Position numbers and translations under genes: made by a program. Below the pieces are notes generated by a model. It did not search any database. It was not told the origin of the DNA and was given only the letters and a program-made list of their open reading frames with translations. This document shows positions 6,395-60,000 of a DNA stretch of 64,000 nucleotides, one piece after another. The DNA is from Candidatus Poribacteria bacterium. GTDB lineage: Bacteria; Poribacteria; WGA-4E; PCPOR2b. The stretch lies in assembly GCA_965215015.1 (NCBI GenBank), contig OZ244042.1, forward strand, positions 1,024,001 through 1,088,000, written 5' to 3'. Numbering within the stretch: position 1 is the first letter of the stretch; every line of letters begins with the position of its first letter.

Positions 6395-7807
<1,413 letters not shown>

Positions 7808-9924: not shown

Positions 9925-10039
9925 TAGCCAATCCTTGAAGCAGCACCATCATTTTGTCAGAGCAGTCTGCAATAGAGGAGGGTGTGCATAATTCGAGACA
10001 CATTATAGCTGAATTCAAGCGAGGACACCTTGATCAATC

Positions 10040-10088
10040 GTAGGGGCTTGGTTTCCAAGCCCGACGGGTTGGGAAACCCAATCCCTAC
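10040..10088. repeat. GTAG-type REP palindrome
   Basis: GTAGGGGCTTGGTTTCCAAGCCC...GGGTTGGGAAACCCAATCCCTAC. Confidence 0.75.
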
Positions 10089-10507
10089 TCATTGAGAGAT
10101 TTTGAGAAGTATACGCATCCAAACCTATTTATGAGCACCCCTGACATATAGATGTCCACACCACGAGAAAATAATGATTAGTCAAAAAGAGGTCATCCAA
10201 AAGCTTGCACTCTAAATCGCAGGTATGAGGCTTGACGAGATCACAGCAAAGTATAATCGCACCAAAGGGACCATATCCGTCTTGCTGAACCGCGGGGAAA
10301 ATCAAGGCTAAAGTAGGTAGAACGGATAGCCCTACGTACAACCGATGAGATTATCGCAGGACAGCAGCAAAAGGCGATGATAGTAACGAGGGAAGACAAT
10401 AACTGAAACTCGAACCGTTGGACATCTCAGGTTGAGCTGGGATTGTTAGGCACAATCTTACAATCTGGCACCGTAGCATATTTATGTTACGGCGCATTAT
10501 CTCTCTG

Positions 10508-10592
10508 AAAACAGAAAAAGGGCTGCATGTCGGTAATCCCCAAATCACGCAGCCCTTCTGTTTCCGATCGAAACTAGATGAACAGGAAGGTG
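10508..10592 (-). terminator. Hairpin/terminator element, copy A (copy B at 11888-11972)
   Basis: Minus strand reads GTTTCGATCGGAAAC, then GGGCTGC...GCAGCCC and a U-tract. Clearly homologous to copy B. Confidence 0.7.
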
Positions 10593-10612
10593 CTCTATTC
10601 TCCCTCTGTTTT

Positions 10613-11371: not shown

Positions 11372-11519
11372 GACAGAACTTCCTTACAAAATTGAAAAAG
11401 CATCATTCTCCGCCCTTGTGGGGGCGGGACAACGAAGAAGATTACGGATGCCTCGACACCTCTACAGTTGAGAAGCTTGCCCTTGTATAGAAGAAGGTTA
11501 GGGCAAGTCTATAAGGACA

Positions 11520-11876
11520 CTATGATAGCCTTGGCTCGATAGAACAGTACGCTCTCTGCCCCGTCCTTCTGGCTTTGACACTCATATACACGTAACCTGA
11601 GATTGGATTACTCTTTTGCTGGCTATACTTTGGATTATTACCATAAGTTAGTACTCGTGCATGTATCCAATACCAACCAACCCAACTTTGAGCACTTGCA
11701 TCAGCAAATGCTCTTACTTTACCACCTAATTTTGTAATACCTCCACTACCCTGAATCGGACCGTCATTCTGTGTATCTCTGTCCTTAGCAATTGACAGCA
11801 CAACAGATAACATCGTTACAAGACATAGGAGGATTATCAAAATTCTCAGTCGCATCTTTGTTTTTTCGCATACCAT
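11520..11876 (-). CDS. Small secreted hypothetical protein (island cargo)
   Basis: Signal peptide MRLRILIILLCLVTMLSVVLSIA followed by a basic, aromatic-rich mature part; AT-rich. Confidence 0.65.
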   Translation of the reverse strand: MVCEKTKMRLRILIILLCLVTMLSVVLSIAKDRDTQNDGPIQGSGGITKLGGKVRAFADASAQSWVGWYWIHARVLTYGNNPKYSQQKSNPISGYVYMSVKARRTGQRAYCSIEPRLS

Positions 11877-11887
11877 GGTTTCGTTTT

Positions 11888-11972
11888 AAAAACAGAAAAA
11901 AGGCTGATTGGGGGTAATCTCAAATCGTGCAGCCCCTTTTGTTTCCGATCGAAACTTATGGCAAAAAAGGTG
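11888..11972 (-). promoter_or_regulatory. Hairpin/terminator element, copy B, directly upstream of the 11876 start (attenuator-like)
   Basis: Homologous to 10508-10592; the U-tract ends about 12 nt before the ATG. Confidence 0.6.
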
Positions 11973-12139
11973 TACGCACTTATAAATCAAGCGATTCGAG
12001 CCACGATTTCATATCGTTTCGGGGAGCTCCGAGAAGAGCACTTAGGGCTCCCATCTTTTTAATTAATCCCGATCTATCGTGACCAATCCTGGACTACATT
12101 TAAACCTTTTTAAAACACTTGTCAACACTTTTTTGCAAT

Positions 12140-12748
12140 TCACTTGTAATTTCCCTGGATTTCTTTTCTTTGAACCGAGCAATCGTACCCCGTTCTGTCA
12201 ACTCCATTTTGGTATAATGCGCCGGCATCTGAGACAACCTCCACCTGCCCGCTGTCTACATAGCCACAACCGACGCACCGGTTTTGGCAAGAGAAACCGC
12301 CGTGCCGCCACCTAGTGAATGACCCGATATAAATTCCTCCACCCCTGCGATGTTTGCCCACAGTTGGATAGCGTTCCGTGCCCCGCATGCCGTGAACCGT
12401 GTGGTCTGAATGTGATCCCCCCGACGGATGCGACGAAACAAAGGAGAACAATACCCAACCTGTGATTCTTCCCCTGTCCACGCTTGCAGGGGAGGGGGGT
12501 ATCCATTTGACAGCTGCAACCGCTTGACTAATCGTTGCTGGCGACTTCCCCGCTGGGCGAAGATCCATGATGAGGGTTGCAAGCAAGGCATCGGTGAAAG
12601 ATTGACCATTAAGCTATGTTTCAATCTCTCGTAACCAGTAGCGATAATTTCGTAGTGTGTTTTCACTGACACCATTTGTGATTAGAGCTTTGGTATCATC
12701 GCTAATTGACAACCCTTGTGGTTTATCCTGAACCGCTAACTCGTTCAC
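12140..12748 (-). pseudogene. Cre-like tyrosine recombinase relic 1
   Basis: RBS+GTG, then MNELAVQDKPQG...SENTLRNYRYW...(TAG)...GKSPATISQAVAAVKW, and later PLFRRIRRGD and FISGHSL in shifted frames. Homologous to 58463-59032. Confidence 0.8.
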
Positions 12749-12881
12749 CGTTCCTTTCCCTTCCTGTCTGTTAGGGAAGCCCTACAGAGATATAGTTTCC
12801 GTTAAAGAAGATTAAGATTAATCGCAAGCGTACAGAAGATTGTCGCTACACACCTATACTAACCAAGTGAGTCATTTTTTC

Positions 12882-12910
12882 TTGACACTTAGGATACTGG
12901 CTAGTATACT
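12882..12910 (+). promoter_or_regulatory. Consensus sigma70 promoter
   Basis: TTGACA-17 nt-TATACT, about 50 nt upstream of the likely GTG start at 12960. Confidence 0.8.
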
Positions 12911-12959
12911 ACCAATCAGGTTTACTATACCTAAATTATCTAAGGCAGGCGATTCAACT

Positions 12960-13664
12960 GTGAAAAAGTTATCCTTTTGCATACTGATTATACTAATTGC
13001 AGCAAGCTACAGCTCCGCCCGTATTATAGATCCGAAGACAGGGGCGGAGTTTAAATATAAAGCGAAACTAGCTGAGGTTGCCCCAGTGGTTGATGGCTTT
13101 CTTGACGACCCCGCGTGGGACGATGCTATTTCTGCCGCCCTAGACCATGATGTCAAACAGGACAGGCGTTGGGAAGAATCCAGCGATTTCAAAGGTACTT
13201 TTGCTGCTGTCTGGCGCAATGCCTCCCTCTATGTAGCCGTTGAATTGACCGATGATCAAATCGAAACCGCTCACGAAAAACTCGCTCGGCAAGACCGCCT
13301 GGAAATTTACCTAGATATAGAACATTCAGGTAACCAGAGCGATCTCTATCGTTACACAATCCCTGTTGGGAAAGACATCACGTTGGCTGATTCTCAGCGA
13401 CTGCAAGCTAACTGGGGAAATGCAGGGCAATCTGTAGAATTGAGCTTTGCCTTGGGACATATACCGAGAAAAGAGGATACTGTCAGTTTCGGAATTTACT
13501 ATTATGATGTGGATGGCGATCGTCTAAACCATCAATTTCGATGGGGACCAATTGGACAAACTGAACCGGCAGATGCCCTTGCAGATCTGGTATTTACAGC
13601 GAATATAAAGCTAAACGCAAACCAAAAAGCAATACAGTGGGGACGTATTAAACAGCTCTATTAA
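12960..13664 (+). CDS. Secreted CBM9-like sugar-binding protein with C-terminal WGRIK motif
   Basis: Signal peptide; PVVDGFLDDPAWDDA, AVWRNASLYVAVELTDD and DRLEIYLD motifs; ends KAIQWGRIKQLY. Confidence 0.75.
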   Translation: MKKLSFCILIILIAASYSSARIIDPKTGAEFKYKAKLAEVAPVVDGFLDDPAWDDAISAALDHDVKQDRRWEESSDFKGTFAAVWRNASLYVAVELTDDQIETAHEKLARQDRLEIYLDIEHSGNQSDLYRYTIPVGKDITLADSQRLQANWGNAGQSVELSFALGHIPRKEDTVSFGIYYYDVDGDRLNHQFRWGPIGQTEPADALADLVFTANIKLNANQKAIQWGRIKQLY

Positions 13665-13736
13665 TCATCGTGCAACGGCACTATGAGGTTAGGCAATTGA
13701 TACCGATGCGTCAAACTCAAGTGTACGGAGTTCACA

Positions 13737-13916
13737 GTGTTTATCATCGGTAAAGCATTAGAATTGATAGGAATGGCGCTTCTAGGAGCGGGGTTATATG
13801 TTGGATGCATCAACCCCTACGGCTTGAGTGAAGGTGCCGCTATGGGCGCAGAGGTAGCCTCCCTTATGGTAGGAATCTTAATCTTCTTCATAGGCAGAAC
13901 GATAGAGAAACGCTAA
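13737..13916 (+). CDS. 59-aa two-TM small membrane protein (absent from ORF track)
   Basis: GGAG RBS then GTG; MFIIGKALELIGMALLGAGLYVG...MVGILIFFIGRTIEKR. Confidence 0.65.
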   Translation: MFIIGKALELIGMALLGAGLYVGCINPYGLSEGAAMGAEVASLMVGILIFFIGRTIEKR

Positions 13917-14363
13917 CCGTGCTCGCACAGCATGACCGTTTAGGTTAAAGACCTATTTCGGCACGCCCACATACTCGAGCATCGAGCGCACCTCCTCGAT
14001 GCTTTTTTAATTTTTCGGAGTAACTTCCCAAGTAGCGAATCTCGAAATAAATCCATATGATGGCAAATAAACCTCGACAAGCCATCGCAAGATGTAACTA
14101 TTTGGGCATGAAAACCTATATGAATCCTAAAGCAGCTGAGCAGGTTCTCGGCTGTCATGTCGATACCTGTCAATGACAGCAAGATTGGATACATCGAAAC
14201 ACCGGGAGATTGACGGCATTATGACCTGCAAGGATACATTGATAGTCAAACCGAGTCAGATATTACTACCCTTTGCTACTGTCGAGTTAGTGGAACAGGA
14301 CAAACCGACGCTTTGCATGGATTTATGAGCGGGTGTTCAGGTTGAAAGGTACAGGAATATAGA

Positions 14364-48872: not shown

Positions 48873-49763
48873 ATGTCTGTTCGTTTCACTTTTTTGACCG
48901 ATAGCCATTATTACCCCGGTGCGCCGAAAGATTACGGCGCACCAAAGATGCTGACGCAGAGTAGGACTGTTCTCGACGCAATCGTGCCAGCGGTCAATCC
49001 GATCAGACCGGACTTCATCGTTCACGGCGGCGACTTCCTCTGTGGTGGCAGTTCGTTCGATTTGCCGTGGACGACCTATCTGCAATCAATTGAGGATGTT
49101 GCGACAACTTTTGCCGGTTTTGAGGCACCGATGTATTGTGTCCCCGGCAATCATGACTCCGACGCACAACAGGGGTCTTTTGAAGCGTTTGCAGAAAAAT
49201 TCGCCATCCCCGAAACGCTCAAGGTCGTTGACGCCGCTCCACGGCTTCGCCTCGCGCTCGCCAACATCTATCACCAATGCCACCCTATCCAAGATGGCAA
49301 CGGTGTTTGGACCGATATCCTCGACAATGCCCTCCGTGAAGCAGCGGAAAAGGCTTATGACGAAGGGCACGCGATGCTGTTGTTTCTCCATACATGGGTG
49401 CTGCCAAGCGATGTGGAAGGAAAAGGAATCCTCGATGGTGCGGATCGCCTGCTGGAAACCGTGAAGGAGAGTCCCGCCATCGTTGCGCTCTTCACAGGGC
49501 ATCGGCATATCAACCGTATCCGGATGTATCGTGATTTCCTCATTGTTGACACTGCATGTCTGATCGGTTTTCCAATGGGGTTTCGAGAGATTCAACTCCG
49601 GGAGGACGGATATTTCGAGACGCGATTTCATCAACTCCCGCTACCAGCACTTATCCAAGCGTCATACGACAAATCCAGTGTTGAAACGAACAACGTTTGG
49701 TGCGGGGAAATCCATGACCGGGATACGGAAATTCTCTTGCCGAGGCTTAGAGAGATTTGGTAA
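48873..49763 (+). CDS. Metallophosphoesterase
   Basis: TDSH, GGD, PGNHD and FTGHRH. Confidence 0.92.
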   Translation: MSVRFTFLTDSHYYPGAPKDYGAPKMLTQSRTVLDAIVPAVNPIRPDFIVHGGDFLCGGSSFDLPWTTYLQSIEDVATTFAGFEAPMYCVPGNHDSDAQQGSFEAFAEKFAIPETLKVVDAAPRLRLALANIYHQCHPIQDGNGVWTDILDNALREAAEKAYDEGHAMLLFLHTWVLPSDVEGKGILDGADRLLETVKESPAIVALFTGHRHINRIRMYRDFLIVDTACLIGFPMGFREIQLREDGYFETRFHQLPLPALIQASYDKSSVETNNVWCGEIHDRDTEILLPRLREIW

Positions 49764-49841
49764 CCACGAATCTACGCGAAACGGTCTCTGATGATGAGCC
49801 TATATTAGTTAGGACTTACGCGGCTCAACATTCAAACCCTC

Positions 49842-50022
49842 GTAGTTTGGTGCCTCATCAAATACTGGGGGTATCACTCGACAGTGTTGGTATCTATACG
49901 ACTCACGCCGCCCGATGAACCGGGCAACTACAATTAATCCAACAGAAGTAGGCACGGTCCGTACCCCGCTTGGGGGGAGTCATTCCGAGCACAACGGTTA
50001 CGGCATACGGCGTATGCCTACT
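49842..50022. repeat. Cluster of GTAG...CTAC REP-like palindromes
   Basis: GTAGTT...CCCGATGAACCGGGCAACTAC and GTAGGCAC...GCATACGGCGTATGCCTAC. Confidence 0.6.
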
Positions 50023-50117
50023 CCCTTAAAGAGGCGCAATGAACGCGCCACTACAAACAACTTCTATCAGTGTAGATTCGCGTGATTAGCGGATTGGTGT
50101 TAGAAAAGGAGAGGCAG

Positions 50118-50840
50118 ATGAAAATCCTCGTCACCGGTGCCGCCGGGGCTGTTGGTACGGCGGTCGTGAAAGGGATGAAAGACCGGTATTCACTGCGTGG
50201 GTTTGACCGCGTACCAATGCCAAATATTGAAGATGCAATTGTCGGCGATGTCACTGACTTTGATGCTGTGCTCCAAGCCACTCAGGACACGGAGGCAGTG
50301 ATTCACCTCGCAGGCAACCCCTCCGGCGGCGCGCCGTGGGAAGATATTCTTCAGAATAACATTGTCGGCACTTACAATGTCTTTGAAGCGGCACGGCAAA
50401 ACGGTGTACGTCGCATTGCCTTCGCCAGCCGGGCCGGGCTGCTCGCGCCTTATCCAAAAGACATCATGCGGACGGTTGATATGATGCCTCGACCGGAGAC
50501 CTACTACTCAATCAGCAAGGTCTTTGGAGAGAATCTAGGCTATATGTACTCAGCCCGGTTTGATATGGAATTTGTCGCGGTCCGAATTGGCAATTTCAAG
50601 CGAGATCGCGACCTCCCCACACACCCCCATCAACTGAGCCATGGCGACGCGGCCCGCGTGTTCGAGCAGGCAGTTACTTCCCCCCTTTATCCTCCCGCTA
50701 GCGGAGGGAAAGGGGGGGCGAAATTTGAGGTTGTGTTCGGTGTTTCAGACAGTACATGGGCACTCTACGATCTGGAACATGGGCGGCAGGTCATCGACTA
50801 TCACCCACAGGATAAGTCGGACGCAGTACCGGAGGTTTGA
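50118..50840 (+). CDS. NAD-dependent epimerase/dehydratase (uronate dehydrogenase-like) with in-frame palindrome insert
   Basis: TGAAGAVG, HLAG, YSISK and VRIG. Confidence 0.9.
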   Translation: MKILVTGAAGAVGTAVVKGMKDRYSLRGFDRVPMPNIEDAIVGDVTDFDAVLQATQDTEAVIHLAGNPSGGAPWEDILQNNIVGTYNVFEAARQNGVRRIAFASRAGLLAPYPKDIMRTVDMMPRPETYYSISKVFGENLGYMYSARFDMEFVAVRIGNFKRDRDLPTHPHQLSHGDAARVFEQAVTSPLYPPASGGKGGAKFEVVFGVSDSTWALYDLEHGRQVIDYHPQDKSDAVPEV

Positions 50841-50847
50841 GCAATAA

Positions 50848-51177
50848 CTTGTGAGCACAAAAAAGGGGTCCCCCGCATCACATGGGGAGACCGCTTTTCT
50901 TATTGGGACCGTGTTGCCTGGCTACTGTGCCGAGGATTCAGTCTTACCCGGCACCTCGCGGGCAGGCACCTTATTCTCCCCCTGCTTGCGGGGGGATATA
51001 GGGGGGTGCCGCTCAAATTGCCGGGCCGCTTCCGGATCCATCTCCCTGAAACGACGAAGTCCTTCCTCCGAACCGTATTGGTCTATCAACTGCGGTTCGT
51101 GTACATGCCCATCCTCGTGGTCGACATGTGCGGCATTGACCGGGGCGGACGGTGTCTCCGTTACGGGTGAGGCTTGT
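50848..51177 (-). pseudogene. 3' relic of the 55471/56916 paralogue family plus shared terminator
   Basis: Near-identical to 56840-57238 apart from an internal deletion of about 70 bp. Confidence 0.85.
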
Positions 51178-51520
51178 GTAGCAGCCCCGGATAGAATTAT
51201 CTACGCCGCCGGGGGCGAGGGCTGCGTATGCCCAGTTTCCTGTCAAAATAATCTTGAATTTGCTGTTGGGTGGGTGGTTTGAGATTATCATACCGATTTC
51301 CGTCAGGTTTCGTCCGTAAATGAGGGCTGACGAGGGTGTGCCATTTTTACGCAAGTCAGACGTAACGCGTTGTATCCGTGGCATAAAGGTAAGGAGACTT
51401 AGGATCGTCATGAATTATTGACAACGATTGTCAATTTCACTCAGATAATATGACAAACACAATAGATTGTCAAGTCTAAAAATATCAAATGCGTTACAAA
51501 GGAGTAGCTCATCCTGTTAT

Positions 51521-51691
51521 ATGAAAAAACTTTTTGAGTCCGGTGGTGACTTTGATGGTGGACTAGACTTTTACCCTCCCAACCCTTACGATTTCGAGCG
51601 CCCGAGCTGCCGGGGGTGTTTGGTGAATGCCATTAAATTGGTTATAATTTTATTTATCGTGTTTTTCGTCCTCTTTAAACTAATGCAGTGA
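51521..51691 (+). CDS. Small membrane protein
   Basis: 56 aa with a C-terminal hydrophobic helix preceded by SCRGC. Confidence 0.45.
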   Translation: MKKLFESGGDFDGGLDFYPPNPYDFERPSCRGCLVNAIKLVIILFIVFFVLFKLMQ

Positions 51692-51744
51692 CAGAATCAC
51701 TATTCAAATGAATCCCTAAATTTCAAAACAAAGGCGGTAAATTT

Positions 51745-52410
51745 ATGTCAACTCAACGACGTTTCACGATAGTGGTGGTGGCGGTTGTTATTCTTTTACT
51801 GGTTGGGATTAGCACTTTTTTAGTCTATGATAAGAATGCATCCATCCAAGAGGTAACGGTTTATGAATTGCCGGATTCCCATACGCCCAGTGTGGAATCT
51901 TCTCTTAGCACGACAGACATCATCGGGGCTATTACTACAGGTCAACGGGGGAGGATTTCTGATAACACCACAGAACAGTATTCTAGTGAATACGATCAAG
52001 GATATGAGGCTGCTGCTGCGCTGGGTGAAAGTACGATAGAACCGTGTTGTCCAGATGAGCTAGATCCTTTAGGTGATATGGATTCGGGGCAAGATACCAA
52101 CCTTGACCACAATCCTGTGTCCCCTGAAGTGATATCGGATGCTAGGCGTCATAATCTATGGTGGGAGGCTCAAAAAGAGCATCATGAAAAAGTGGTAGCA
52201 TCGAAAGAGAAAATGGATGAATTGATGGAGGATTTGAATTTGATTCTTGATGAGAATCGTGATTCGGATCAACTCCTTCGTAATTTGCGAGATCCTGTGT
52301 ATTGGGCGAAGGTGGAATCAACATTTGGTAAACTTGAGTTGTTGAAAAAACAGGATGATAAATTGGCAAAAGAATATCCAAGAAGTCTAACTAACCGCTA
52401 TGTAGATTAA
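51745..52410 (+). CDS. Hypothetical membrane-anchored protein (island cargo)
   Basis: MSTQRRF + TM helix, acidic linker, EPCCPD and coiled C-terminus. Confidence 0.75.
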   Translation: MSTQRRFTIVVVAVVILLLVGISTFLVYDKNASIQEVTVYELPDSHTPSVESSLSTTDIIGAITTGQRGRISDNTTEQYSSEYDQGYEAAAALGESTIEPCCPDELDPLGDMDSGQDTNLDHNPVSPEVISDARRHNLWWEAQKEHHEKVVASKEKMDELMEDLNLILDENRDSDQLLRNLRDPVYWAKVESTFGKLELLKKQDDKLAKEYPRSLTNRYVD

Positions 52411-52753
52411 GGGAAAGGAGTTAAACGAGTCTGTGCACTTACCGAAGCAGATAAAACCACGACGAGGTTGAGGGATTCGGCCCTGATTCGACTGATGAAT
52501 GATTGCCTGTTACGAATCAGTGAAGGGGGCGCGGTAGATGCCGAGGATATCGATAGCGCATTGACAAGTGGAAGGCTTTATCTCTGGATACTCCCTTCGT
52601 GTTGGTTCCGCTGTAGCACTTGCCCAAGCAGGAACGTCCGTTGTAGATATGCAGGGTGCAGGACGATGGAAAGAATAGCGGCTGCCAGCGCATTACGCAC
52701 GGGCAGCATTGACAGAGTAAATCGCGATTGCACGCTTCAAATACAAAAAATGA
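52411..52753 (+). pseudogene. Cre-like tyrosine recombinase relic 2
   Basis: High DNA identity to 58491-58633 and 58847-59032, with deletions and stops. Confidence 0.9.
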
Positions 52754-52849
52754 TAGCTTCGACGTTGCAAACACACCATGATGTGCTATACTATATTCCA
52801 ATGCGTAGAGATTTGACATACTCCTCAACCTAAAGGAAAATTTGCTAAA

Positions 52850-53875
52850 ATGGACGTTCTTATTATCGGTGGCACACGATACATGGGTCGGATTGTTGTG
52901 CAGAGACTCCTTGAACGCGGAGACAAAATTACCGTTTTCTCTAGGGGAACCACCCAACCCGAATGGTGGGAGCAGATTGAACATATTCAGGGAGACCGTG
53001 AAGATCGGTCAGATTTTACCGCAAAGCTGAATGGAAAATCTTTTGATGCGGTCATTGATACGCAGGCTTACCGTAAGGAAGATGTTGAATCTGCGGTGGA
53101 GGCATTCGATGGAAACGCAGGGCGTTACGTCATAGTCAGCACCGGATCGGTATATTTGGAAGGCGCGGTAGACTTTTCTAAGTATTGCACATTCCAAGAA
53201 TCGGTTGTGGATTGGTCATCCCTTGACTATACCTACCCCGCCGGAGAAGACCCATACGGCGTCGGCAAGCGACACTGCGAAAAGTGGCTCCAAGAAAACA
53301 GCAACATTCCGTACACAATTATCCGTATTCCGGCAGTTATGGGCTGGGACGACCCGACCGGACGGATGTGGTGGTGGGTCCAGCGGGCATTGGATGGACG
53401 TGGCGTAGTTATTCCGCTAGAAGATCGTGGACTGTTCCGCACCCTATATTCCGTTGATGCTGCACAAGCTTTTATCTGTGTCCTTGATGTACCGGAGACT
53501 GCCAACCAGACATATCACATCGCCATGCAAGAGATAATGACCATTGAGCGTTGGGGGAATCTGATTTGGAGGGCAGTGGGTCACGAGTGCCAGATTACCT
53601 ACGTTCCCCGCGAAATTATCCACAAACAGCCTCACCTGAATGCCTACGCCCCGCCGATGAGTCGATCCATCTCATACATCTACAATCTGTCCAAAGCCGA
53701 GCGTGAATTCGGTTTCAGCACTACCCCTGTAGAAGAATGGATTCGGACAACCGTAGATTGGTATCGCGAGCAACACAAAGGCGATAATTCGGAGGGCTAC
53801 GAATATCGGGAGAATGAGCTAAGATTAGCAGCAAGATGGGAGACACAATTCGATCGGTTCATCTCGGAGTTCTAA
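52850..53875 (+). CDS. NAD-dependent epimerase/dehydratase family protein
   Basis: GGTRYMG, STGSVY and YGVGK. Confidence 0.92.
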   Translation: MDVLIIGGTRYMGRIVVQRLLERGDKITVFSRGTTQPEWWEQIEHIQGDREDRSDFTAKLNGKSFDAVIDTQAYRKEDVESAVEAFDGNAGRYVIVSTGSVYLEGAVDFSKYCTFQESVVDWSSLDYTYPAGEDPYGVGKRHCEKWLQENSNIPYTIIRIPAVMGWDDPTGRMWWWVQRALDGRGVVIPLEDRGLFRTLYSVDAAQAFICVLDVPETANQTYHIAMQEIMTIERWGNLIWRAVGHECQITYVPREIIHKQPHLNAYAPPMSRSISYIYNLSKAEREFGFSTTPVEEWIRTTVDWYREQHKGDNSEGYEYRENELRLAARWETQFDRFISEF

Positions 53876-53894
53876 TCTGACACCTCAAACCGCA

Positions 53895-54002
53895 TTAGGA
53901 TTCAAAGATTAACAGGATAAAACACCCCTCTCATTATCCTGAAAATCCTAAAATTCTGTAAATCCTGATTCAGACAATTAATCCTGTAAATCCCGATTTG
54001 AC
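53895..54002. repeat. 9-nt-periodic imperfect palindromic repeat (AATCCTGxA type)
   Basis: AGGATTCAAAGATTAACAGGAT ... ATCCTGAAAATCCTAAAATTCTGTAAATCCTGATTCAGAC. Confidence 0.6.
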
Positions 54003-54018
54003 TTTAGGAGACAGCAAA

Positions 54019-55374
54019 ATGTCAAACGTCGATGCAAAAAAAGCACTATTCCATCGCGATTTGAGTTACGATTATCCCCTAATAGTGCGCGGGGAAGGGA
54101 TCTACCTCTACGATGAAACAGGAAAAGGCTACATAGACGGTGCCGCGGGTGCAAGTAATGTGACCTTGGGACATGGCCGTCAACGTATCGCGGATGTAAT
54201 GGCAGAACAAGGCAAGACGCTCGCCTACTGCTTCGCCACCCATTTTACGACTCAACCCGCACTAGACTTAGCCGATCGGGTCGCCGCAATAGCCCCCGGC
54301 GACCTGAACCACGCCTATTTCGTTTCAGGCGGTTCAGAGGGGATTGAAACCGCGATCAAGATTGCCCGGCAGTACCATGTCCAGCGTGGGAAGGGACAGA
54401 AGCATCAAGTCATCGCCCGGTGGCGTGGCTACCACGGTGCGACGCTCGGGGCTTTGGGAGTCACAGGTACACCGGGGATGCGCGACCTTTTCGCACCCTT
54501 GCTTCCCCATTTCCCACACATCGCCCCTTGCTATCCATATCGCTGCGCGTTTGCGGGTTGTGAAGGAAAATGCAACCTGACCTGTGCCCATGAACTGGAG
54601 CAGATGATTTTGCAGACCGGGCCGGAGAATGTGGCGGCATTTGTGGCAGAACCTTTGGTGCTCGGAGGCGTTGCTGCGGCGATACCGCCCAAGGACTACT
54701 ATCCAGTCGTGCGTGAAATCTGCGATAAGTATGATGTCCTATTTATTGCGGATGAAATCATCACCGGTTTTGGGCGCAGCGGCAGATATTTCGCCATTGA
54801 GCACTGGGACGTCCTCCCGGATATGATTGTCTTTGGAAAGGCAGCGAGCAGCGGCTACGCCCCTTTGAGCGGTGTGATTATTCGGGATAGTATTCGTGAT
54901 ACCTTCGCAGCGGGCGGCACACCTTTCGCCCACGTCTTCACCTACGTCAATAATCCCATAGCCATGCGGGTTGGGTTGGAGGTGCTGGATATCATCGAAG
55001 AGGAAGGGATTCTTGAGCATACGACGCAGATGGGCGAGTATCTACTAAAAAAAGCAAGCGCGTTAGACGCCCATCCAAGCGTCGGTGAGATTCGGGGGCT
55101 CGGACTGATTCTCGGCATCGAGCTAGTACGTGACAAAGAGACGAAGGCACCCTTTCCCGCATCGCTTGGCTTTCACAAACGCCTCAACAAGATTCTACTG
55201 GATAAGGGCCTGTCCATAGGGAGTGCCGGCGGTACGGCAGATTGGAAGAACGGCGACGACCTGCGTTTTTATCCTCCGCTCATTATCACGCGCAGCCAAA
55301 TTGATGAAGTGATTGCCATCATCGATGAGGGTCTGGGACAATTGGAAGATGAGCTTTCGCGTCCCAACCGATGA
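54019..55374 (+). CDS. Class III aminotransferase
   Basis: SGGSEGIETAIK, YHGAT, ADEIITGFGRSG and FGKAASSGY. Confidence 0.95.
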   Translation: MSNVDAKKALFHRDLSYDYPLIVRGEGIYLYDETGKGYIDGAAGASNVTLGHGRQRIADVMAEQGKTLAYCFATHFTTQPALDLADRVAAIAPGDLNHAYFVSGGSEGIETAIKIARQYHVQRGKGQKHQVIARWRGYHGATLGALGVTGTPGMRDLFAPLLPHFPHIAPCYPYRCAFAGCEGKCNLTCAHELEQMILQTGPENVAAFVAEPLVLGGVAAAIPPKDYYPVVREICDKYDVLFIADEIITGFGRSGRYFAIEHWDVLPDMIVFGKAASSGYAPLSGVIIRDSIRDTFAAGGTPFAHVFTYVNNPIAMRVGLEVLDIIEEEGILEHTTQMGEYLLKKASALDAHPSVGEIRGLGLILGIELVRDKETKAPFPASLGFHKRLNKILLDKGLSIGSAGGTADWKNGDDLRFYPPLIITRSQIDEVIAIIDEGLGQLEDELSRPNR

Positions 55375-55387
55375 CACCGGGATTCAA

Positions 55388-55648
55388 AAGGACATGTTGT
55401 GAAGCACAAAAAAGCGGTCCCCTGCATCACATGGGGAGACCGCTTTTCTTATTGAGACCGTGTTGCCGTGCTACTGTGTCGATGACTCAACCTCATCTGG
55501 CCTCTCACGGGCAGGCACCTTATTCTCCCCCTGCTTGCGGGGGGATATAGGGGGGTGCCGCTCAAATTGCCGGGCCGCTTCTGGATCCATCTCCCTGAAA
55601 CGGCGGAGCCCTTCCTCCGCACCGTATTGGTTAATTAACTGTTGTGCC
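55388..55648 (-). repeat. About 260-bp module (paralogue C-terminus + terminator), repeated at 56833-57093 and partly at 50848-51095
   Basis: Direct sequence comparison. Includes the minus-strand terminator AAAAGCGGTC...GACCGCTTTTTT. Confidence 0.92.
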
Positions 55649-56484
55649 TTCTCTTGTTGCTCTGGGGACATCCCCTCCCAGCCGCGCACTTCATGGCCTT
55701 CCACTGGTAGCGTTTCATGTACACGCTCAACCTCGTCAGTCCCGGGTGCTTTATCAACCGGGATTTTCGGCGCATTTATTACAGGGAAGACTCCAGAATC
55801 CGCAGGGGAATCCTCAAAGCTACCGGCTCCCGCAGCACTGTCGCTCCGCATCGGTGCAGGGAGCGGATCGACCCGGGCGTTTACAAACGAACTTGGAATT
55901 AAGCCCTCTGCGATTAACCTGCCCACATCTTCGATGGGGACATCATACATTGAACTCAAATGAATTTTATTTATGTACGAATCCGCAGTTTCCCCTTCTG
56001 GAACATCATACATTACCCCATCTATCAGCACCCTCGTCATAACAGGCCAAGCCTCGGGAGGAGGTACAAAGTCCCCAGGTTTAAGTTTTGAATGCCAATA
56101 TATCTTATGTACCTGCCCGTCAGGGCCTTCAATGAGCTGCGGCACCAAATCCTTCACATAATATGTTTCAGTACTCACAAGTTGGGCATCCCTATCGTCA
56201 TCCGGGTTCGACGACACCTGTGCATACTGGATCTTTACAGGCTTACCAGTCGCTGCGCTAAAAGGTTCTCCCTTAGGGGACTTCGAGGCAGCCGCTTGTA
56301 ATTGTTCCTCTTTATCAAGGGAATGTTGAGAAATCTTAGGGTCCAAAAATATCTTCCCAAACGCAACATGGTCTCTTAGTAATTCCCTTAATTCAAGGTG
56401 ATTTTTGTAAACCCAGTATCCTACGACAACAAGAAACAGCACCATCAATGCAACGGTGCAACGGAAAAAACGGCGATTAAACAT
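55471..56484 (-). CDS. Membrane-anchored hypothetical protein, paralogue B
   Basis: AGGAG RBS; MFNRRF + TM; C-terminus QQLINQYGAEEGLRRFREMDPEAARQFER. Confidence 0.85.
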   Translation of the reverse strand: MFNRRFFRCTVALMVLFLVVVGYWVYKNHLELRELLRDHVAFGKIFLDPKISQHSLDKEEQLQAAASKSPKGEPFSAATGKPVKIQYAQVSSNPDDDRDAQLVSTETYYVKDLVPQLIEGPDGQVHKIYWHSKLKPGDFVPPPEAWPVMTRVLIDGVMYDVPEGETADSYINKIHLSSMYDVPIEDVGRLIAEGLIPSSFVNARVDPLPAPMRSDSAAGAGSFEDSPADSGVFPVINAPKIPVDKAPGTDEVERVHETLPVEGHEVRGWEGMSPEQQEKAQQLINQYGAEEGLRRFREMDPEAARQFERHPPISPRKQGENKVPARERPDEVESSTQ

Positions 56485-56830
56485 GATAATCTCCTAAGAA
56501 ACGAATAAAGTGTTTGTCCATTCGGGCATACTTAGGGCCATTAGAGCAGTGGCTGTTATTACAACGGGTACCCCACATAATATCAGTCCAATCGCCGGTA
56601 AAGGTTCTCCAGAACTTCCACTCTGAAAACCCAGTCGACTTCCAAGCCCCATTACGGTACACCTGATAGTTGTATCTTTTGTTGACGGTATAGGTGTACT
56701 TGTAACGCCAACCGGATATAATGCCTGAACTACACGCGTGGCAAGACTTAGCATAACTCTTAATGTCGTATGATTGAACTGAGAATTGCACTTCCGGAAT
56801 CGTGCGAGTATCACCTTCGCTTGGACCGTT
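56477..56830 (-). CDS. Small Cys/Trp/Tyr-rich protein, probably 5'-truncated
   Basis: Frame open from the repeat junction (NGPSEGDTRTIPEVQF...CHAC...CNNSHC); overlaps the next start; no clear RBS or signal peptide. Confidence 0.55.
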   Translation of the reverse strand, partial: NGPSEGDTRTIPEVQFSVQSYDIKSYAKSCHACSSGIISGWRYKYTYTVNKRYNYQVYRNGAWKSTGFSEWKFWRTFTGDWTDIMWGTRCNNSHCSNGPKYARMDKHFIRFLGDYHV

Positions 56831-56915
56831 TTAAGGACATGTTGTGAAGCACAAAAAAGCGGGCCCCTACATCACATGGAGCGACCGCTTTTCTTATTGA
56901 GACCGTGTTGCCTTG

Positions 56916-58040
56916 CTACTGTGTCGATGACTCAACCTCATCTGGCCTCTCACGGGCAGGCTTCTTATTCTCCCCCTGCTTGCGGGGGGATATAGGGGGG
57001 TGCCGCTCAAATTGCCGGGCCGCTTCTGGATCCATCTCCCTGAAACGGCGGAGCCCTTCCTCCGAACCGTATTGGTCAATCAACTGTTGTGCCGTATTAA
57101 AACGCTCTGACGATAACCGTTCCTTGAGTTGCGTTTCAAGGCTTTCAACGACTGGCGGTTCGTGTACATGCCCATCCTCGTGGTGGACGTGTGCGGCATT
57201 GACCGGGGCGGACGGTGTCTCCGTTACGGGTGAGGCTTCGGAACGGACAGGCACCTCACCGCGCTCCCTCGCAGAAACAGGGACTGTTGCATCACTAATC
57301 TGTTGCTGATACTCGCCCTCGCCGGTGGATGTCTGTTTCCCACGGTTGATGAGGTGCCCCTCGCCCCTTACCTCAAGAAACGCGTTAATCATCCTTTCAT
57401 CCTCTGGTGTTAGAGATGCAGATTCTATTATAAGCTCCCCTGACGCTAGACGCCGTTCAAGTTCTTCTATTGAGATTCCCAGTGTTTTAGCGTCAATTAA
57501 TTTCTCAACGTACGCCTCTCTCTCTGTTTCAGAGATATAATCGGGGATCTCTGAAGCTTCTATAGTATGCCAACCTTCCATTGGATTCTCTAGAATATTA
57601 TCTTCTCGTATAGGAAGTGGCGGGGGGATAGCATCCCCCTTTTTGAGCAGCTTGTCAGGCGTTGTGTACACTACCCGGACGGTGCCATCAGGGGTTTCAA
57701 CGAATTGTGGCACCAGCGGTTGCCCCTCACCGCGGATGACAGGGTAGCCTTTGGGGGACGGTTCACCGATTTCGCTCGCTTCTGCATACTGTACCCGCAC
57801 CGGCAGTTGGTCTAATAGATTGGGCACGTCATTCTCACGATTTTCACCCGCACGTCTCGAATTCCTTTCTGCTATGTGAGAGGCATCTTTATTAAGCCCC
57901 TCCTGAAACGCCTTAGATTCCGAGATAAAACGCTTAAACTGGCTATGATTTTGGTAAGCTCTATAGCCTACATAACAGAGGGAAATTAACGTAACAGTAC
58001 AAACACCAACAATATAGGGACTGAAACGACGTCTAAACAT
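56916..58040 (-). CDS. Membrane-anchored hypothetical protein, paralogue A
   Basis: AAGGAGG RBS before ATG 58040; MFRRRF + TM; same C-terminal module as paralogue B. Confidence 0.85.
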   Translation of the reverse strand: MFRRRFSPYIVGVCTVTLISLCYVGYRAYQNHSQFKRFISESKAFQEGLNKDASHIAERNSRRAGENRENDVPNLLDQLPVRVQYAEASEIGEPSPKGYPVIRGEGQPLVPQFVETPDGTVRVVYTTPDKLLKKGDAIPPPLPIREDNILENPMEGWHTIEASEIPDYISETEREAYVEKLIDAKTLGISIEELERRLASGELIIESASLTPEDERMINAFLEVRGEGHLINRGKQTSTGEGEYQQQISDATVPVSARERGEVPVRSEASPVTETPSAPVNAAHVHHEDGHVHEPPVVESLETQLKERLSSERFNTAQQLIDQYGSEEGLRRFREMDPEAARQFERHPPISPRKQGENKKPARERPDEVESSTQ

Positions 58041-58142
58041 CAGATTGACCTCCTTAGCTATAAAAAAATAACCGTTTTTTGGACAACCCATTTACCAGAT
58101 ATTACACAGAATCTCTGGCAATCAACATGCCAACAATATAGG

Positions 58143-58180
58143 TTCAGTAGGGACAGGTTGGAAATCCGGCCCCTACTGAA
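58143..58180. repeat. GTAG-type REP palindrome
   Basis: TTCAGTAGGG...CCCTACTGAA. Confidence 0.65.
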
Positions 58181-58462
58181 AATCGCCCAACACGGTGTGG
58201 ATAGACTTACCCGCCATTGAGACCTGGACAGGAAAGACCATGAACGCTACAGATATAGCGATAACTATTCGTTCTTACGATGCGCCTGCTCACCTCTCTG
58301 GTTGAGACATTTCTCCAGTGGGGATTGCCATTTTCATGGTAATAATAAACGCGTACCTGTTTATAGCGAGTGTAGATTCTCCATTTTTCTTCGACTTTTA
58401 CGCTACCACCGCTACCGTTAGGGCATGAACCCCCATTATAGCTATAAAAGGTCCAAACTCAG

Positions 58463-59032
58463 GTGGATGGCATAACCTGGGACGAGGTAGAACGAGTCTG
58501 TGCACTTGCCGAAGTGGATAAAACCACAACAGGGTTAAGGGATTCGGCACTGATTCGACTGATGAGTGATTGCCTGTTACGAATCAGTGAAGGGGTCGCG
58601 GTAGATGCCGAGGATATCGATAGCGTGTTGACCATTCATCAATCAAAGACTGACCACGAATGGGAAGGTACAACGCTGTATGTTGGCGATCCCACACGGG
58701 AGGTGATAAATCGGTATTGTGAAGCAGGAAACATCACCTCAGGCCCCCTCTTTCGGCGGATTCGTCGGGGGGACAATATAACCCACAGCAGACTGAGTGT
58801 AGGCGGTGCAAGAAACGCTATTAAGTGCCGGGCACGCGCAGCGGGTGTGGAAGGCTTTATCTCTGGTCACTCCCTTCGTGTTGGTTCCGCTGTAGCACTT
58901 GCCCAAGCGGGAGCGTCCGTTGTAGATACGCAGGTTGCAGGCCGATGGAAAGAATCGCGGATGCCAGCGTGTTACGCACGGGCAGAATTGACAGACCAAA
59001 CCGCGATTGCACGCTTCAAATACAAAAAATGA
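58463..59032 (+). pseudogene. Cre-like tyrosine recombinase, catalytic domain only (relic 3)
   Basis: LRDSAL..LLRISE (R), QSKTD (K), SGHSLRVG (HxxR), GRW and CYAR (Y). The N-terminal binding domain is absent. Confidence 0.85.
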
Positions 59033-59238
59033 TAACATCACGCGCAGCCAAATTGACGAGGTGATCATCATCATCTATGAAGGTCTGGGACGATTGAAAG
59101 ACAAGCTAAAGCGCGAAGGACTGGGGAAAATAGAACGCAAAGTTCCAGAGTCACAAAGGAAAGTTTTTTAATATTTTCGCAGCAGCCCAAACTTTGCGTC
59201 TTTGCACCCTTGCGTTCTATTTTTCTTGCTGCGCGTCC

Positions 59239-59979
59239 TTACCCGAATAGTGGGTTAGTTGTCCCGAATGCGTCTACTGCCGTCCCCGTAACCGCTGAAC
59301 TCATATCTGAGGCTAGGAAAACCGCGAGTGCTGCAATCTCTTCGGGCAGCATCAACTTCGGATTCTCTTCCCTGCCCCCGCTCCCGAATGCCTCGCGAAA
59401 ACCTTCCGTGTCAACCCCGCCGGGGCAGATGCAATTGACATCAATGCCGTGCTGCTTGACCTCGGCTGCGACGCTTTCCGTTAGACTGATCAGCGCGGCT
59501 TTGGTTACCCGATAGGCGGTACGACCCTTGCCCCCTTTTCGCCCACCAATGCTTGAGATGTTGATGATTTTCCCATATCGGTTTTCAATCATACTCGGCA
59601 GCGCGAACTTTGTGAGCAACGCAGCGGCGGTTAGGTTCACATCCATGACCTGCCTCCACAGATTAGCGTCCAAGTCCACCAGATCTATGGGCGGGTGGAT
59701 GATGGCAGCGTTGTTGACCAAGATATCAATCCCTCCAAACTTCGCGGTCGTTTCATCTACGATGCGTCGGATGTCTCGCTCAACGCTTAAATCTGCTGTC
59801 ACCGCTAATCCCATCGAGCCTGCCTCCTTGACCTGACCAACAACCGTTTCAATCGCCTCCGTCGTGCGAGCAGTAGCAACGACGTTAGCACCTTCCCGAC
59901 CGAATGCGAGTGCAATCGCTCTTCCAATCCCTTGGCTCGCACCGGTGACAATGGCAGTTCTATTCTCAAGTTGTCCCAT
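59239..59979 (-). CDS. Short-chain dehydrogenase/reductase
   Basis: TGASQGIG, NNAA and YRVTK. Confidence 0.94.
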   Translation of the reverse strand: MGQLENRTAIVTGASQGIGRAIALAFGREGANVVATARTTEAIETVVGQVKEAGSMGLAVTADLSVERDIRRIVDETTAKFGGIDILVNNAAIIHPPIDLVDLDANLWRQVMDVNLTAAALLTKFALPSMIENRYGKIINISSIGGRKGGKGRTAYRVTKAALISLTESVAAEVKQHGIDVNCICPGGVDTEGFREAFGSGGREENPKLMLPEEIAALAVFLASDMSSAVTGTAVDAFGTTNPLFG

Positions 59980-60000
59980 TAATTGCTCCTTTCAAACCTA

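Follow-up and report, generated by a model that had tools for sequence, protein, structure and literature searches.

Prochlorococcus tycheposons are small, cargo-carrying tyrosine-recombinase elements that form additive islands at fixed hot spots, where tandem arrivals leave fragmented integrases and partial target repeats and where host flanking DNA is carried along after imprecise excision (Hackl et al., 10.1101/2020.12.28.424599). Their targets are seven tRNA/tmRNA genes, and excision and packaging are documented. Insertion at the ends of protein-coding genes is described for two other kinds of island: SGI1 integrates at the trmE 3' end and replaces the gene end (PMC8409611), and the dusA-specific islands are genomic islands integrating into the end of a protein-coding gene (PMC4482086). 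Cre/loxP of phage P1 and the integrons (IntI, attI, attC) are the other closest known systems.

The window analysed here, 64,000 nucleotides of a 5.9-Mb Candidatus Poribacteria chromosome of sponge-symbiont type, holds three recombinase relics (12160-12709, 52420-52753 and 58460-59032), each at one end of an islet of 2-4 kb. The recombinase copies in the window are dead, and the small recombinase-associated islets are real. We consider it about an even bet (probability roughly 0.5) that decay has left at the three loci the remains of small (~2-4 kb) recombinase-bearing islets that belong to a Poribacteria-specific family and entered by site-specific insertion. A literature search found no published description of this recombinase-plus-cargo family, which is abundant in the genome and apparently new to the literature, in agreement with a preliminary description that called the element undescribed.

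The genome contains about 20 matches to the recombinase, among them six intact frames of about 300-333 aa. Purifying selection is evident in the two unsaturated pairs (dN/dS 0.27 and 0.19), and the six intact paralogues are kept by selection. Among solved structures Cre matches best (E 1.3e-11, residues 51-295), compared with only 8.5e-4 for an archaeal XerC-like chain; no integron integrase occurs among these matches, and integron-integrase models do not match the recombinase. Identity as XerA, XerC or XerD was rejected, the models scoring 48-59 bits against cutoffs of 220-335. The assignment to the Cre/P1 type rather than to IntI or XerC, made earlier by eye, is thus borne out. All six catalytic residues (R, K, H, R, W, Y) align with Cre 173, 201, 289, 292, 315 and 324; the catalytic tryptophan of the Cre-like set stands where most family members have histidine. 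Pfam matches cover a SAM-like N-terminal and a catalytic domain, giving a two-domain enzyme without an arm-binding domain.

Numbered on the 301-aa intact paralogue, the relic of islet 1 (minus strand) keeps N- and C-terminal parts, residues 9-78 and 207-301 by tblastn, the latter at 61% protein identity; its middle is deleted, its frames are broken and one in-frame TAG is present. The relic of islet 2 (plus strand) is a C-terminal part interrupted by stops and an internal deletion, which leave two pieces (residues ~121-194 and 224-301); its DNA is 91-92% identical to that of islet 3. The latter (plus strand) retains the catalytic domain only, as an open 189-aa frame (residues 112-301, 78% identity; Pfam Phage_integrase, 2e-14). 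That none of the three islets has an intact recombinase counts against the main reading. The preliminary description saw three relics of one recombinase: all three are real and belong to one tyrosine-recombinase family, but islet 1 represents a different subfamily, with a cargo layout opposite to that of islets 2 and 3.

Each islet is inserted between conserved core genes and is absent at the same position in 12 to 18 of 19 sister species, so that the empty sites proposed as a check were found. Islet 1 (9975-12830) is flanked by a peptidase-like gene and the neighbouring core gene; in 17 of the 19 species these flanks are 3-508 bp apart, as seen also in the junctions read, and in the remaining two a different 8 kb insert occupies the site (G011) or the flanks lie on two contigs (G010). 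Islet 2 (50841-52796), whose neighbours are a short-chain dehydrogenase-like gene and an epimerase gene, is missing in 12/19. Its site carries other cargo alleles together with the recombinase tail in G004, G014 and G017, which favours the main reading, and a 413-bp relic keeping both ends in one species; the site is rearranged in one and not assessable in two of the 19. Islet 3 (55375-59036) separates a class-III aminotransferase gene (53998-55374, plus strand; Pfam Aminotran_3, 5.7e-95) from a convergent dehydrogenase gene and is lacking in 18 of 19 species, the genes being 4-398 bp apart or their matches overlapping (one species not assessable).

Within islet 1, the left end is a dispersed, MITE-like repeat of ~165 nt (9978-10148) with at least 14 further copies in the genome at 81-87% identity. 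Its cargo consists of a 252-aa acidic protein gene (10613-11371, minus strand; D+E 17%, K+R 5%) with a hydrophobic N-terminal helix, paralogues at eight other genome places and no match in Pfam or NCBIfam, and of a 118-aa partner gene (11520-11876, minus strand) with three Cys and an N-terminal anchor or signal, whose paralogues adjoin those of the larger protein at two other places. A ~70-nt leader repeat with promoter-like sequence and a hairpin lies between relic and cargo operon (11889-11956, minus strand), and a second copy, 84% identical, follows the pair downstream (10508-10575, minus strand). This leader is also found 3' of four type-B recombinase genes and near three cargo clusters without recombinase.

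Islets 2 and 3 share the layout that had been noted from the letters. Their left edge is a 300-nt repeat (50839-51138, 55388-55687 and 56833-57132; 78-90% identical) made up of the 3' end of a paralogous gene and a hairpin (-19 to -23 kcal/mol) that has a U-run behind it on the cargo strand; their right edge has a common recombinase stop context. In islet 2 the repeat (D1 copy, minus strand) is the terminator hairpin and 3' fragment of an F2-family cargo gene whose rest is deleted; in the X1/X2 strain that gene extends beyond 51092. There follow a 74-aa open frame with a hydrophobic C-terminal tail and one weak paralogue (51467-51691, plus strand) and the gene of a 221-aa N-anchored acidic protein (51745-52410, plus strand; D+E 19%), the single paralogue of which comes immediately behind a further recombinase relic (genome position 2858913). 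Islet 3 carries two F2-family genes on the minus strand. One encodes 337 aa (55471-56484), is 36% identical to its 391-aa paralogue and is itself one of the family matches (P0012); the other is an open frame of 391 aa (56916-58091) with a likely start at 58040, giving 374 aa. A possible Cys-containing partner of 104 aa (56477-56791, minus strand) shares 8 nt with the start of the 337-aa gene and is uncertain, as it competes with an overlapping 106-aa frame; no paralogue of it was found in the genome.

The neighbours of the relics were described as N-anchored and acidic, and they are (D+E 16-19%, N-terminal anchors). The small secreted or Cys-rich partner holds up beside the cargo gene at many related loci, where signal-peptide or Cys-rich genes adjoin it, but is less certain within the window. 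For the 391-aa protein at least 125 relatives were found, all of them lacking Pfam domains; its AlphaFold model predicts a long N-terminal helix, small beta and helical parts, a disordered acidic linker and a C-terminal helical bundle. Across the family, variable middles lie between conserved N-terminal anchors and C-terminal domains. Searches of the cargo for protein families, defence systems and folds gave no matches. The proposed role as surface or host-interaction factors or effector/immunity pairs is conjectural; at most, the sequences suggest a pair of variable proteins exposed at the cell envelope.

The recombinase is linked to the cargo throughout this genome and in other genomes as well. 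Nine of 18 recombinase loci have a cargo match within 3 kb against 0.59 expected under random placement, a null that ignores any shared preference for variable regions and to that extent weakens the main reading (0 of 10,000 placements reach the count). The enrichment put forward as a check persists without the window loci (6/15 against 0.44 expected; 0 of 20,000), and in other Poribacteria genomes 4 of 13 recombinase loci have the same divergent layout. Against the main reading, no recombinase lies within 5 kb of 20 of the 29 cargo clusters.

How the islets might have entered is best considered at islet 3, where repeat D6, a 65-71-nt duplicate (85-86% identity) of the aminotransferase 3' end, brackets the block. 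The left copy (55285-55355, plus strand), within the last 71+ nt of the gene, terminates as the short allele does in five sister species; the right copy (59037-59107, plus strand) starts 4 nt after the recombinase stop, a position in favour of insertion by the enzyme, and continues into the long form of the intergenic sequence seen in G004 and G011. From its sequence, the pair looks like an att scar. A comparison of strains speaks against this. In contigs of runs X1 and X2, ~99% identical elsewhere, position 58459 is joined to 59221 through 42 other letters, and in those of X3, a more distant relative, the sequence ends at 58456 and restarts at 59246. Islet 3 is therefore present in these strains without the relic and right repeat copy, which together with intergenic DNA make up the variable segment (58460-59220). 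Since the break falls exactly at the start of recombinase homology and the right repeat is missing, the repeat may not be the insertion scar of islet 3. Moreover, among 20 recombinase loci tested for flanking repeats islet 3 alone qualifies; elsewhere the matches are one of 32 nt (c50), three of 14-18 nt and a 105-nt repeat (L037). The earlier claim that the islets spread as units through the recombinase loses ground on both counts, the flanking repeats and the near-identical strain that lacks the recombinase end.

Islet 2 offers a second candidate site. Its relic is followed by a conserved ~45-nt tail (52754-52796, plus strand) in which a palindrome (7-8-bp arms, 6-bp spacer) lies over a promoter-like hexamer pair; a promoter scan matches at 52765-52792, and no RNA fold is predicted. 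The tail occurs in seven genome copies only, every one at the end of a type-A recombinase gene or relic, and, read against G001, the islet boundary falls exactly after it, as the main reading would have it. The palindrome is intact in the integrated state, present once per locus and absent from the empty sites read, and thus fits poorly with a simple attP x attB hybrid.

On the reading that we favour, an islet would consist of a Cre-like two-domain recombinase gene at one edge and one or two cargo modules, each comprising a gene for a small secreted, often Cys-rich protein, a gene for an N-anchored acidic protein and a strong terminator at the end; the larger protein would combine a membrane helix at its N terminus with a conserved helical domain at its C terminus, the body between them being acidic and largely disordered. 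The recombinase would act site-specifically, integrating the islet at a short site beside its own stop codon. At islet 3, a single crossover inside the aminotransferase 3' end may have occurred where ~20 nt of perfect identity between the two repeat copies begin; the incoming element would have brought the replacement end with it from a previous host. Following integration, the recombinase gene would decay by 5' truncation, internal deletion or frameshift while the cargo stays. The window copies would not be autonomous, and at most the six intact paralogues could move them in trans.

A possible but clearly less probable account is an integron-like or lox-like platform, on which a fixed recombinase heads an array whose modules are excised and inserted as circles at palindromes in their leaders, so that arrays grow and swap modules. 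Cargo runs divergently from type-A recombinase genes in tandem modules, in islet 3 each ended by the conserved terminator repeat, yet common ends formed by paralogue 3' ends and terminators are explicable by common descent. In G017 a 360-nt leader (87-94% identical) opens both of two modules, another genome has a single module at the orthologous locus, and the islet 1 cargo pair lies between two leader copies. At the outer edge of the G017 leader stands a near-perfect palindrome with 7-12-bp arms. Two G000 recombinase copies have it upstream, and the islands that G004, G014 and G017 carry at the islet 2 site contain it too; it is absent from islets 2 and 3 and most G000 loci (about 3-8 copies in all), and its 4-nt centre is short for the overlap region of a tyrosine recombinase. 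Excised or empty module forms were not seen, and the lack of a match to integron-integrase models is a further difficulty.

Somewhat less probable still are ordinary variable hot spots, with replacement or additive islands exchanged by homologous recombination in flanking core genes and reshuffled between paralogous cargo ends, the relics being inert. The same chromosomal spots in other species carry other family members: where G017 has a 5.9 kb island, G000 has one of 3.1 kb that holds a different cargo gene, and the site is empty in 14 species. Such reuse by the family supports the main reading. They also hold unrelated inserts, such as the 8 kb of G011 at the islet 1 site and the other content of G008, G002 and G007 at another hot spot, which tells against the main reading. 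Conserved cargo ends with variable middles, including at least one mosaic (G000 1995727-1996503) whose anchor resembles that of the 391-aa gene and whose body resembles that of the 252-aa gene, agree with reshuffling, as does the 98% identity of 84 nt in islet 2 (51092-51175) to islet 3 (57155-57238), which points to recent gene conversion; the difference between strains at islet 3, with its 42 filler letters, is not a clean site-specific joint. Left unexplained are the strong linkage to the recombinase, the selection on its six paralogues and the repeat starting just past its stop codon.

We regard as unlikely, and a little more so, that the recombinase is a minimal selfish element of ~1.3-1.5 kb homing to cargo leader regions or nearby hot spots, the cargo being its target. 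Paralogous loci have in common only the recombinase and a few tens of nucleotides around it while the cargo differs, a finding at odds with the main reading. A 1.45 kb unit (leader, recombinase and 47-nt tail) with sharp bounds recurs in G017 at 97% identity in two loci with different cargo and flanks, which suits both readings; solitary copies exist, such as a 1.28 kb insert (G000 4229632-4230912) at a site ~90 bp long in G003, and many cargo clusters lack a recombinase. Homing of the recombinase by itself sits badly with islet 2, whose cargo and recombinase tail are jointly present or absent in 17/17 assessable species, with islets 1 and 3, missing as whole blocks, and with junctions that show neither target duplication nor a common target motif. 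A phase-variation switch, inverting or deleting a promoter segment to turn the adjacent surface-protein operon on or off, is very improbable: although promoter-like hexamers overlap the post-stop palindrome and the recombinase adjoins genes for exposed proteins, the window has no inverted repeats of at least 40 nt, each locus has one palindrome and no second inverted site, the promoter-like tail faces away from the cargo in type-A loci, and the X1/X2/X3 contigs, which drop rare variants, contain no locus-specific inversion joints.

Returning to the favoured reading of decayed, recombinase-bearing islets, the closest enzyme is that of Cre/loxP and of Cre-type relatives with a palindromic site beside the gene: a two-domain protein without arm-binding domain, with Cre as best solved match (E 1.3e-11), the catalytic R-K-H-R-W-Y set and a short palindrome directly beside the gene. 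Here, however, the genes are chromosomal, at ~20 copies per genome, on neither phage nor plasmid and linked to a cargo family; the palindrome (7-8-bp arms, 6-bp spacer, once per locus) differs from the 13+8+13 of loxP, and recombination is predicted from sequence. Integrons likewise have a tyrosine recombinase heading a divergent array of small modules with conserved hairpin-bearing ends, whereas here no integron-integrase model matches, no attC-like sites were identified, the hairpins are terminators on conserved gene ends and the modules carry their own leaders. Like islet 3, the SGI1 and dusA islands are bracketed by a diverged duplicate of the target-gene end and leave the gene intact; islet 3 is smaller than 4 kb, lacks genes for mobilisation, excision or replication and has a truncated recombinase, and a close strain is missing the second repeat. 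Tycheposons resemble the islets as small recombinase-and-cargo elements at hot spots with fragmented integrases and partial repeats. They differ in that no tRNA gene was found in the window, the sites here being intergenic spacers or a protein-gene 3' end, in that the cargo is one lineage-specific protein family, and in that activity, excision and packaging, is documented for tycheposons. By analogy with tycheposons, the foreign-looking aminotransferase end of islet 3 may be read as host DNA carried along.

The preliminary description of this region had proposed an integrative element spreading surface-protein genes, and had looked to empty sites in sister genomes for a sign of its movement. 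When orthologous sites were read in 19 sister species of the genus, empty sites were found for all three islets, the small inserts that each combine a recombinase relic with cargo genes for N-anchored acidic proteins: they occur in 18 of the 19 species for islet 3, in 17 for islet 1 and in 12 for islet 2. At islet 3 (block 55375-59238) the aminotransferase and dehydrogenase genes lie 4-398 bp apart or overlap in the 18 sisters, one further species being not assessable. The flanks of islet 1 (block ~9975-12830) are 3-508 bp apart in 17 sisters and are split over two contigs in G010. At islet 2 (block 50841-52796) 12 sisters have no island, G011 is rearranged, two species could not be assessed, and G003 retains a 413-bp relic keeping both ends; in G004, G014 and G017 the site is occupied by a different cargo gene of the F2 family (338-403 aa), accompanied by a gene for a small secreted protein (138-160 aa), by ~430 nt of conserved non-coding DNA and by the recombinase tail, with no recombinase frame. 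The window is C1:1024001-1088000 of G000, a complete chromosome of 5.94 Mb. Elsewhere in this genome, an intact islet at genome positions 3621664-3625590 is absent from two of the five sisters fetched, and another intact islet lies at 2380272-2384900. The site of a 5.9 kb island of G017 is empty in 14 species; G000 has a different island there, of 3.1 kb, in which another cargo gene occurs without a recombinase. That the islets are insertions is thus well supported.

Other DNA has also arrived at or near these sites. In G011 the islet 1 site (L069, G011:C1:254600-263100) holds an unrelated insert of 8 kb. Several of the proteins it encodes begin with sequences like signal peptides, and it contains neither a recombinase nor a cargo-family gene, so that this spot is a general hot spot. 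The G012 orthologue of the gene at 50082-50840 is split by an insert of ~1.7 kb (L052, G012:C67:13000-17000, ~1124-2871) carrying two open frames of 186 and 266 aa. In G014 (L050, G014:C5:826000-831000, 3672-4478) a 268-aa frame, by eye presumably an IS transposase, lies between the recombinase tail site and the epimerase gene.

The three recombinase relics reported earlier in the window proved real when matched to an intact 301-aa paralogue from the same genome, whose residue numbering is used here. The islet 3 relic (58460-59029, plus strand) covers residues 112-301 at 78% identity and comprises the catalytic domain only, with its frame open. The islet 2 relic (52420-52750, plus strand) covers residues ~121-194 and 224-301, with an internal deletion and stops, and is 91-92% identical in DNA to the islet 3 copy. 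The islet 1 relic (12160-12709, minus strand) retains residues 9-78 and 207-301, its middle missing, and with 61% protein identity is a member of another subfamily. No functional integrase is encoded by the islets: all three window copies are truncated or broken, intact paralogues lie elsewhere in the genome, and the window copies are predicted to be inactive on their own.

The likeness to Cre suggested at first sight was borne out. Pfam PF00589 (Phage_integrase) matches the islet 3 relic at 54.1 bits (cutoff 27.1) and the intact paralogue at 61 bits; in the latter the catalytic domain is found and the N-terminal SAM-like domain is matched weakly. Of 18 PDB matches, 17 belong to Cre or to Tre, which was engineered from it (best E 1.3e-11); the remaining one is a XerC-like chain (E 8.5e-4), and no IntI chain is among them. 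In the HMMER alignment R, K, H, R, W and Y all align with Cre 173, 201, 289, 292, 315 and 324, which we take to be the catalytic R, K, H, R, H/W and the tyrosine nucleophile, and all six are also present in the 189-aa relic. The enzyme is most similar to Cre and probably resembles it in its working. A chromosome dimer resolvase was considered and rejected, given that the three NCBIfam equivalogs for such resolvases (XerA, XerC and XerD among their names) all stay below their cutoffs, with 59.4 bits (cutoff 220), 56.1 bits (cutoff 329.6) and 47.7 bits (cutoff 335), and that there are ~20 copies per genome. As to an IntI-type integrase, the sole NCBIfam match at E <= 0.01 that names an integron integrase is the archaeal XerA model, where the 59 bits scored fall short of the cutoff of 220.

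The family to which this enzyme belongs is very large, with 3300 cluster representatives at E <= 1e-10 among 8000 scored in the protein database; among the 120 relatives listed, all at least 68% identical to the query, the sole name given is "site-specific recombinase XerD". G000 alone holds 20 matches to the relic, six of them intact frames of ~300-333 aa, including those at 3623873-3624784 and 2380293-2381294; the remainder are truncated or frameshifted, or only their tails are left. Pairs of intact copies give dN/dS values of 0.27 (c4229/c50) and 0.19 (c2380/c6), other pairs being saturated or near 0.2. Two layouts recur in this genome. Type A, with the protein tail KYKK or KYGK, has its cargo upstream and divergent, and includes islets 2 and 3, three intact copies and several relics. 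Type B, with the tail RYRYKKG, has its cargo downstream in the same orientation, preceded by a consensus-like promoter and by a hairpin leader, and islet 1 resembles it.

The association of recombinase and cargo, which the preliminary description had drawn from three cases, holds across the genome. A cargo-family tblastn match lies within 3 kb of 9 of 18 recombinase loci in G000, against 0.59 expected under uniform placement, a null that is blind to a shared taste of both partners for variable regions; nine linked loci were reached in none of 10,000 random trials. Without the three window loci and their cargo the count is 6 of 15 against 0.44 expected (0 of 20,000 trials). Seen from the cargo side, 20 of 29 clusters lie more than 5 kb from any recombinase. 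In other Poribacteria genomes four of the 13 recombinase loci fetched show the same divergent cargo layout, and these are four of the six closest. We consider both the family of recombinase-marked islets and its link to one cargo family to be well supported.

One member of the cargo family is encoded by the 391-aa islet 3 gene (56916-58091, minus strand), whose likely start gives 374 aa. This protein has at least 125 relatives at E <= 0.001, none with a Pfam domain, and the sole organism named among them is Candidatus Poribacteria; as yet, the protein family linked to the recombinase is known from Poribacteria-type data alone. No close orthologue occurs in the 19 sister species, the best full-length match being 35% identical. 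Alignment divides the protein into four parts: an N-terminal anchor and a middle, both conserved, an acidic stretch that varies, and an almost invariant C-terminal part of ~45 residues. In the AlphaFold model (mean pLDDT 66.9) a long helix is predicted at the N terminus and a bundle of helices at the C terminus, besides small beta and helical elements and disorder. Searches of Pfam, NCBIfam and PADLOC gave no cargo match except a sub-threshold one of 20 residues on the transmembrane helix, and the ESM Atlas gave no usable match. With the whole-protein model, Foldseek against the PDB returned nothing at E <= 0.001, and in a wide VIA search the sole match was that of the long N-terminal helix to coiled coils (Z <= 5.7). 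At many loci the large cargo gene is adjoined by a small partner gene encoding a signal peptide or several cysteines; the partner frame in the window (56477-56791) is uncertain. Beside another recombinase relic, at genome positions 1995727-1996503, stands a mosaic cargo protein whose anchor resembles the 391-aa islet 3 gene (75% in DNA) and whose body resembles the 252-aa gene of islet 1 (38% in protein).

Islets 2 and 3 have in common a 300-nt repeat (50839-51138, 55388-55687 and 56833-57132, the last two in islet 3), which consists of a hairpin (-19 to -23 kcal/mol) that has a U-run after it on the cargo strand, and of the last ~80 codons of paralogous cargo genes. A second repeat is confined to islet 3, where the final 71 nt of the aminotransferase gene (55285-55355) are found again at 59037-59107 with 85% identity, beginning 4 nt after the recombinase stop. 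Read by eye, the end of the left copy resembles the short allele present in G001, G002, G003, G014 and G015, and the right copy runs on into the long intergenic allele of G004 and G011. Such a repeat would be expected from a single crossover between the chromosome and a circle carrying a foreign gene end. Contigs from other sequencing runs bear on this. Those of X1 and X2, from a strain ~99% identical elsewhere, join 58459 to 59221 with 42 other letters, a joint bridged by one contig of 19.4 kb; those of X3, a more distant relative, stop at 58456 and resume at 59246. Position 58460 is the exact start of recombinase homology. The segment was either lost there or gained by G000. Since these close relatives have islet 3 but neither the relic nor the right repeat copy, an att reading of the repeat is not secure. 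The contig joints listed, which cannot show rare circles or excision, include no attL x attR joint of islet 3, and islets 1 and 2 have no flanking direct repeats of the attL/attR type.

Type A genes are followed by a conserved stretch of ~45 nt with a palindrome of 7-8-bp arms and a 6-bp spacer, overlapped by promoter-like hexamers and without RNA fold. G000 contains only seven copies, all at recombinase tails or relics; no second copy was found at the other islet end, nor in the empty sites read. Conservation ends a few nt past the right palindrome arm, which at islet 2 is the islet boundary. Searches of 49000-60000 and 9000-14000 against Rfam returned no match at E <= 1. When post-stop DNA was compared with the 6-8 kb upstream, repeats appeared only at islet 3, as matches of 14-32 nt at four other loci, and as the pair in L037. 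In L037, from another Poribacteria genome, a recombinase of a further subfamily lies between two paralogous genes for small membrane proteins, whose first ~105 nt (5431-5535 and 6969-7073) form an 85% direct repeat around it. A 5-nt word that occurs in the tail palindrome, in the terminator loop and where the aminotransferase repeat begins was set aside as too short for evidence.

Several short repeats are dispersed around the islets. A G/C-rich hairpin repeat of ~30-36 nt lies in frame inside coding genes (~50670-50702, ~50975-51010, 55524-55559 and 56969-57004). The dehydrogenase-like gene is longer by 30 nt (10 residues) than in two sister species, and a subset of cargo genes has a 12-residue insert missing from other family members; 38 further short copies are spread across G000, some in tandem ~100 nt apart near 174.8-175.3 kb. 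The repeat is reminiscent of the palindromic elements by which genes of other bacteria are interrupted in frame or otherwise entered. Islet 1 has at its left end a dispersed repeat of ~165 nt (9978-10148) with at least 14 other copies in G000 at 81-87% identity. Several sister genomes contain, in dozens of copies at 92-99% identity, a repeat of similar size that is also part of a G017 island (L032:2043-2222). A further repeat, of ~103 nt, separates a cargo gene from an intact recombinase gene (L004:809-913; G000 3623526-3623630), and copies 94-100% identical at no fewer than eight other places of the genome suggest a miniature element that may have been active recently. In each of the four runs the summed depth of contigs increases 5- to 50-fold at 49867-50233 and 53904-54270, and many loose ends and back-joints of contigs cluster at 49935-50002 and 53933-53980; these sites have the look of short dispersed repeats, placed immediately upstream of the dehydrogenase-like gene and of the aminotransferase gene.

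How the islets arrived can be read in several ways. The recombinase may have integrated each islet as a whole, with decay in place thereafter, and we put the probability of this at roughly one half; it is the simplest account of the window, in which cargo and recombinase tail are either both present or both absent. Exchange of modules at leader sites is an unlikely alternative. Arrays consist of modules in tandem: G017 has two, both of which begin with a common 360-nt leader that bears a near-perfect palindrome at its edge, and the orthologous locus of another genome has one module. Few copies of this leader palindrome occur in G000 and none in islets 2 and 3, so that it is not universal. Rather less probable is homologous recombination at hot spots, with the relics as passengers. 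Slightly more doubtful again is an element in which the recombinase alone homes. Two loci of G017 share a 1.45 kb unit at 97% identity, made up of a leader of ~460 nt, the recombinase and a 47-nt tail, while the DNA to either side is unrelated; this points to probable recent copying or conversion of the recombinase unit alone. A phase switch is very improbable, the window containing no inverted repeats of 40 nt or longer.

A broader proposal, that throughout the Poribacteria a Cre-like recombinase acts at gene-side and leader palindromes in a lox- or integron-like manner, capturing and exchanging operons for secreted and anchored acidic proteins, must be regarded as speculative and improbable. 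Poribacteria are uncultured, dominant symbionts of sponges, and if the shuffling reading were true, they would possess a hypervariable envelope repertoire. If the recombinase moves or swaps modules, it would constitute a compact natural cassette system built on a Cre-type enzyme and would explain how these symbionts vary their exposed proteins; if it does not, the islets are still a clear case of recombinase-marked inserts decaying in place. Our literature search found no published account of what drives the flexible genome of Poribacteria, whether tyrosine recombinase, integrase or mobile elements, and no paper on Cre-like or tyrosine-recombinase cargo islands of this kind in Poribacteria.

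The site of Cre is 34 bp long, with 13-bp inverted arms and an asymmetric 8-bp spacer, and is present in two copies, whereas the candidate here is a palindrome with 7-8-bp arms and a 6-bp spacer that occurs once per locus. The layout is like that of integrons, but the islets are without the defining integrase, and where integrons have attC-bounded cassettes beside attI, the module-end hairpins here behave as terminators. Tycheposons (10.1101/2020.12.28.424599) integrate at tRNA or tmRNA genes and leave partial tRNA repeats, in contrast to the islets, which make no use of tRNA genes (ARAGORN finds no tRNA or tmRNA gene in the window); the two are alike in their hot spots, tandem arrivals, degraded integrases and carried-over host DNA.
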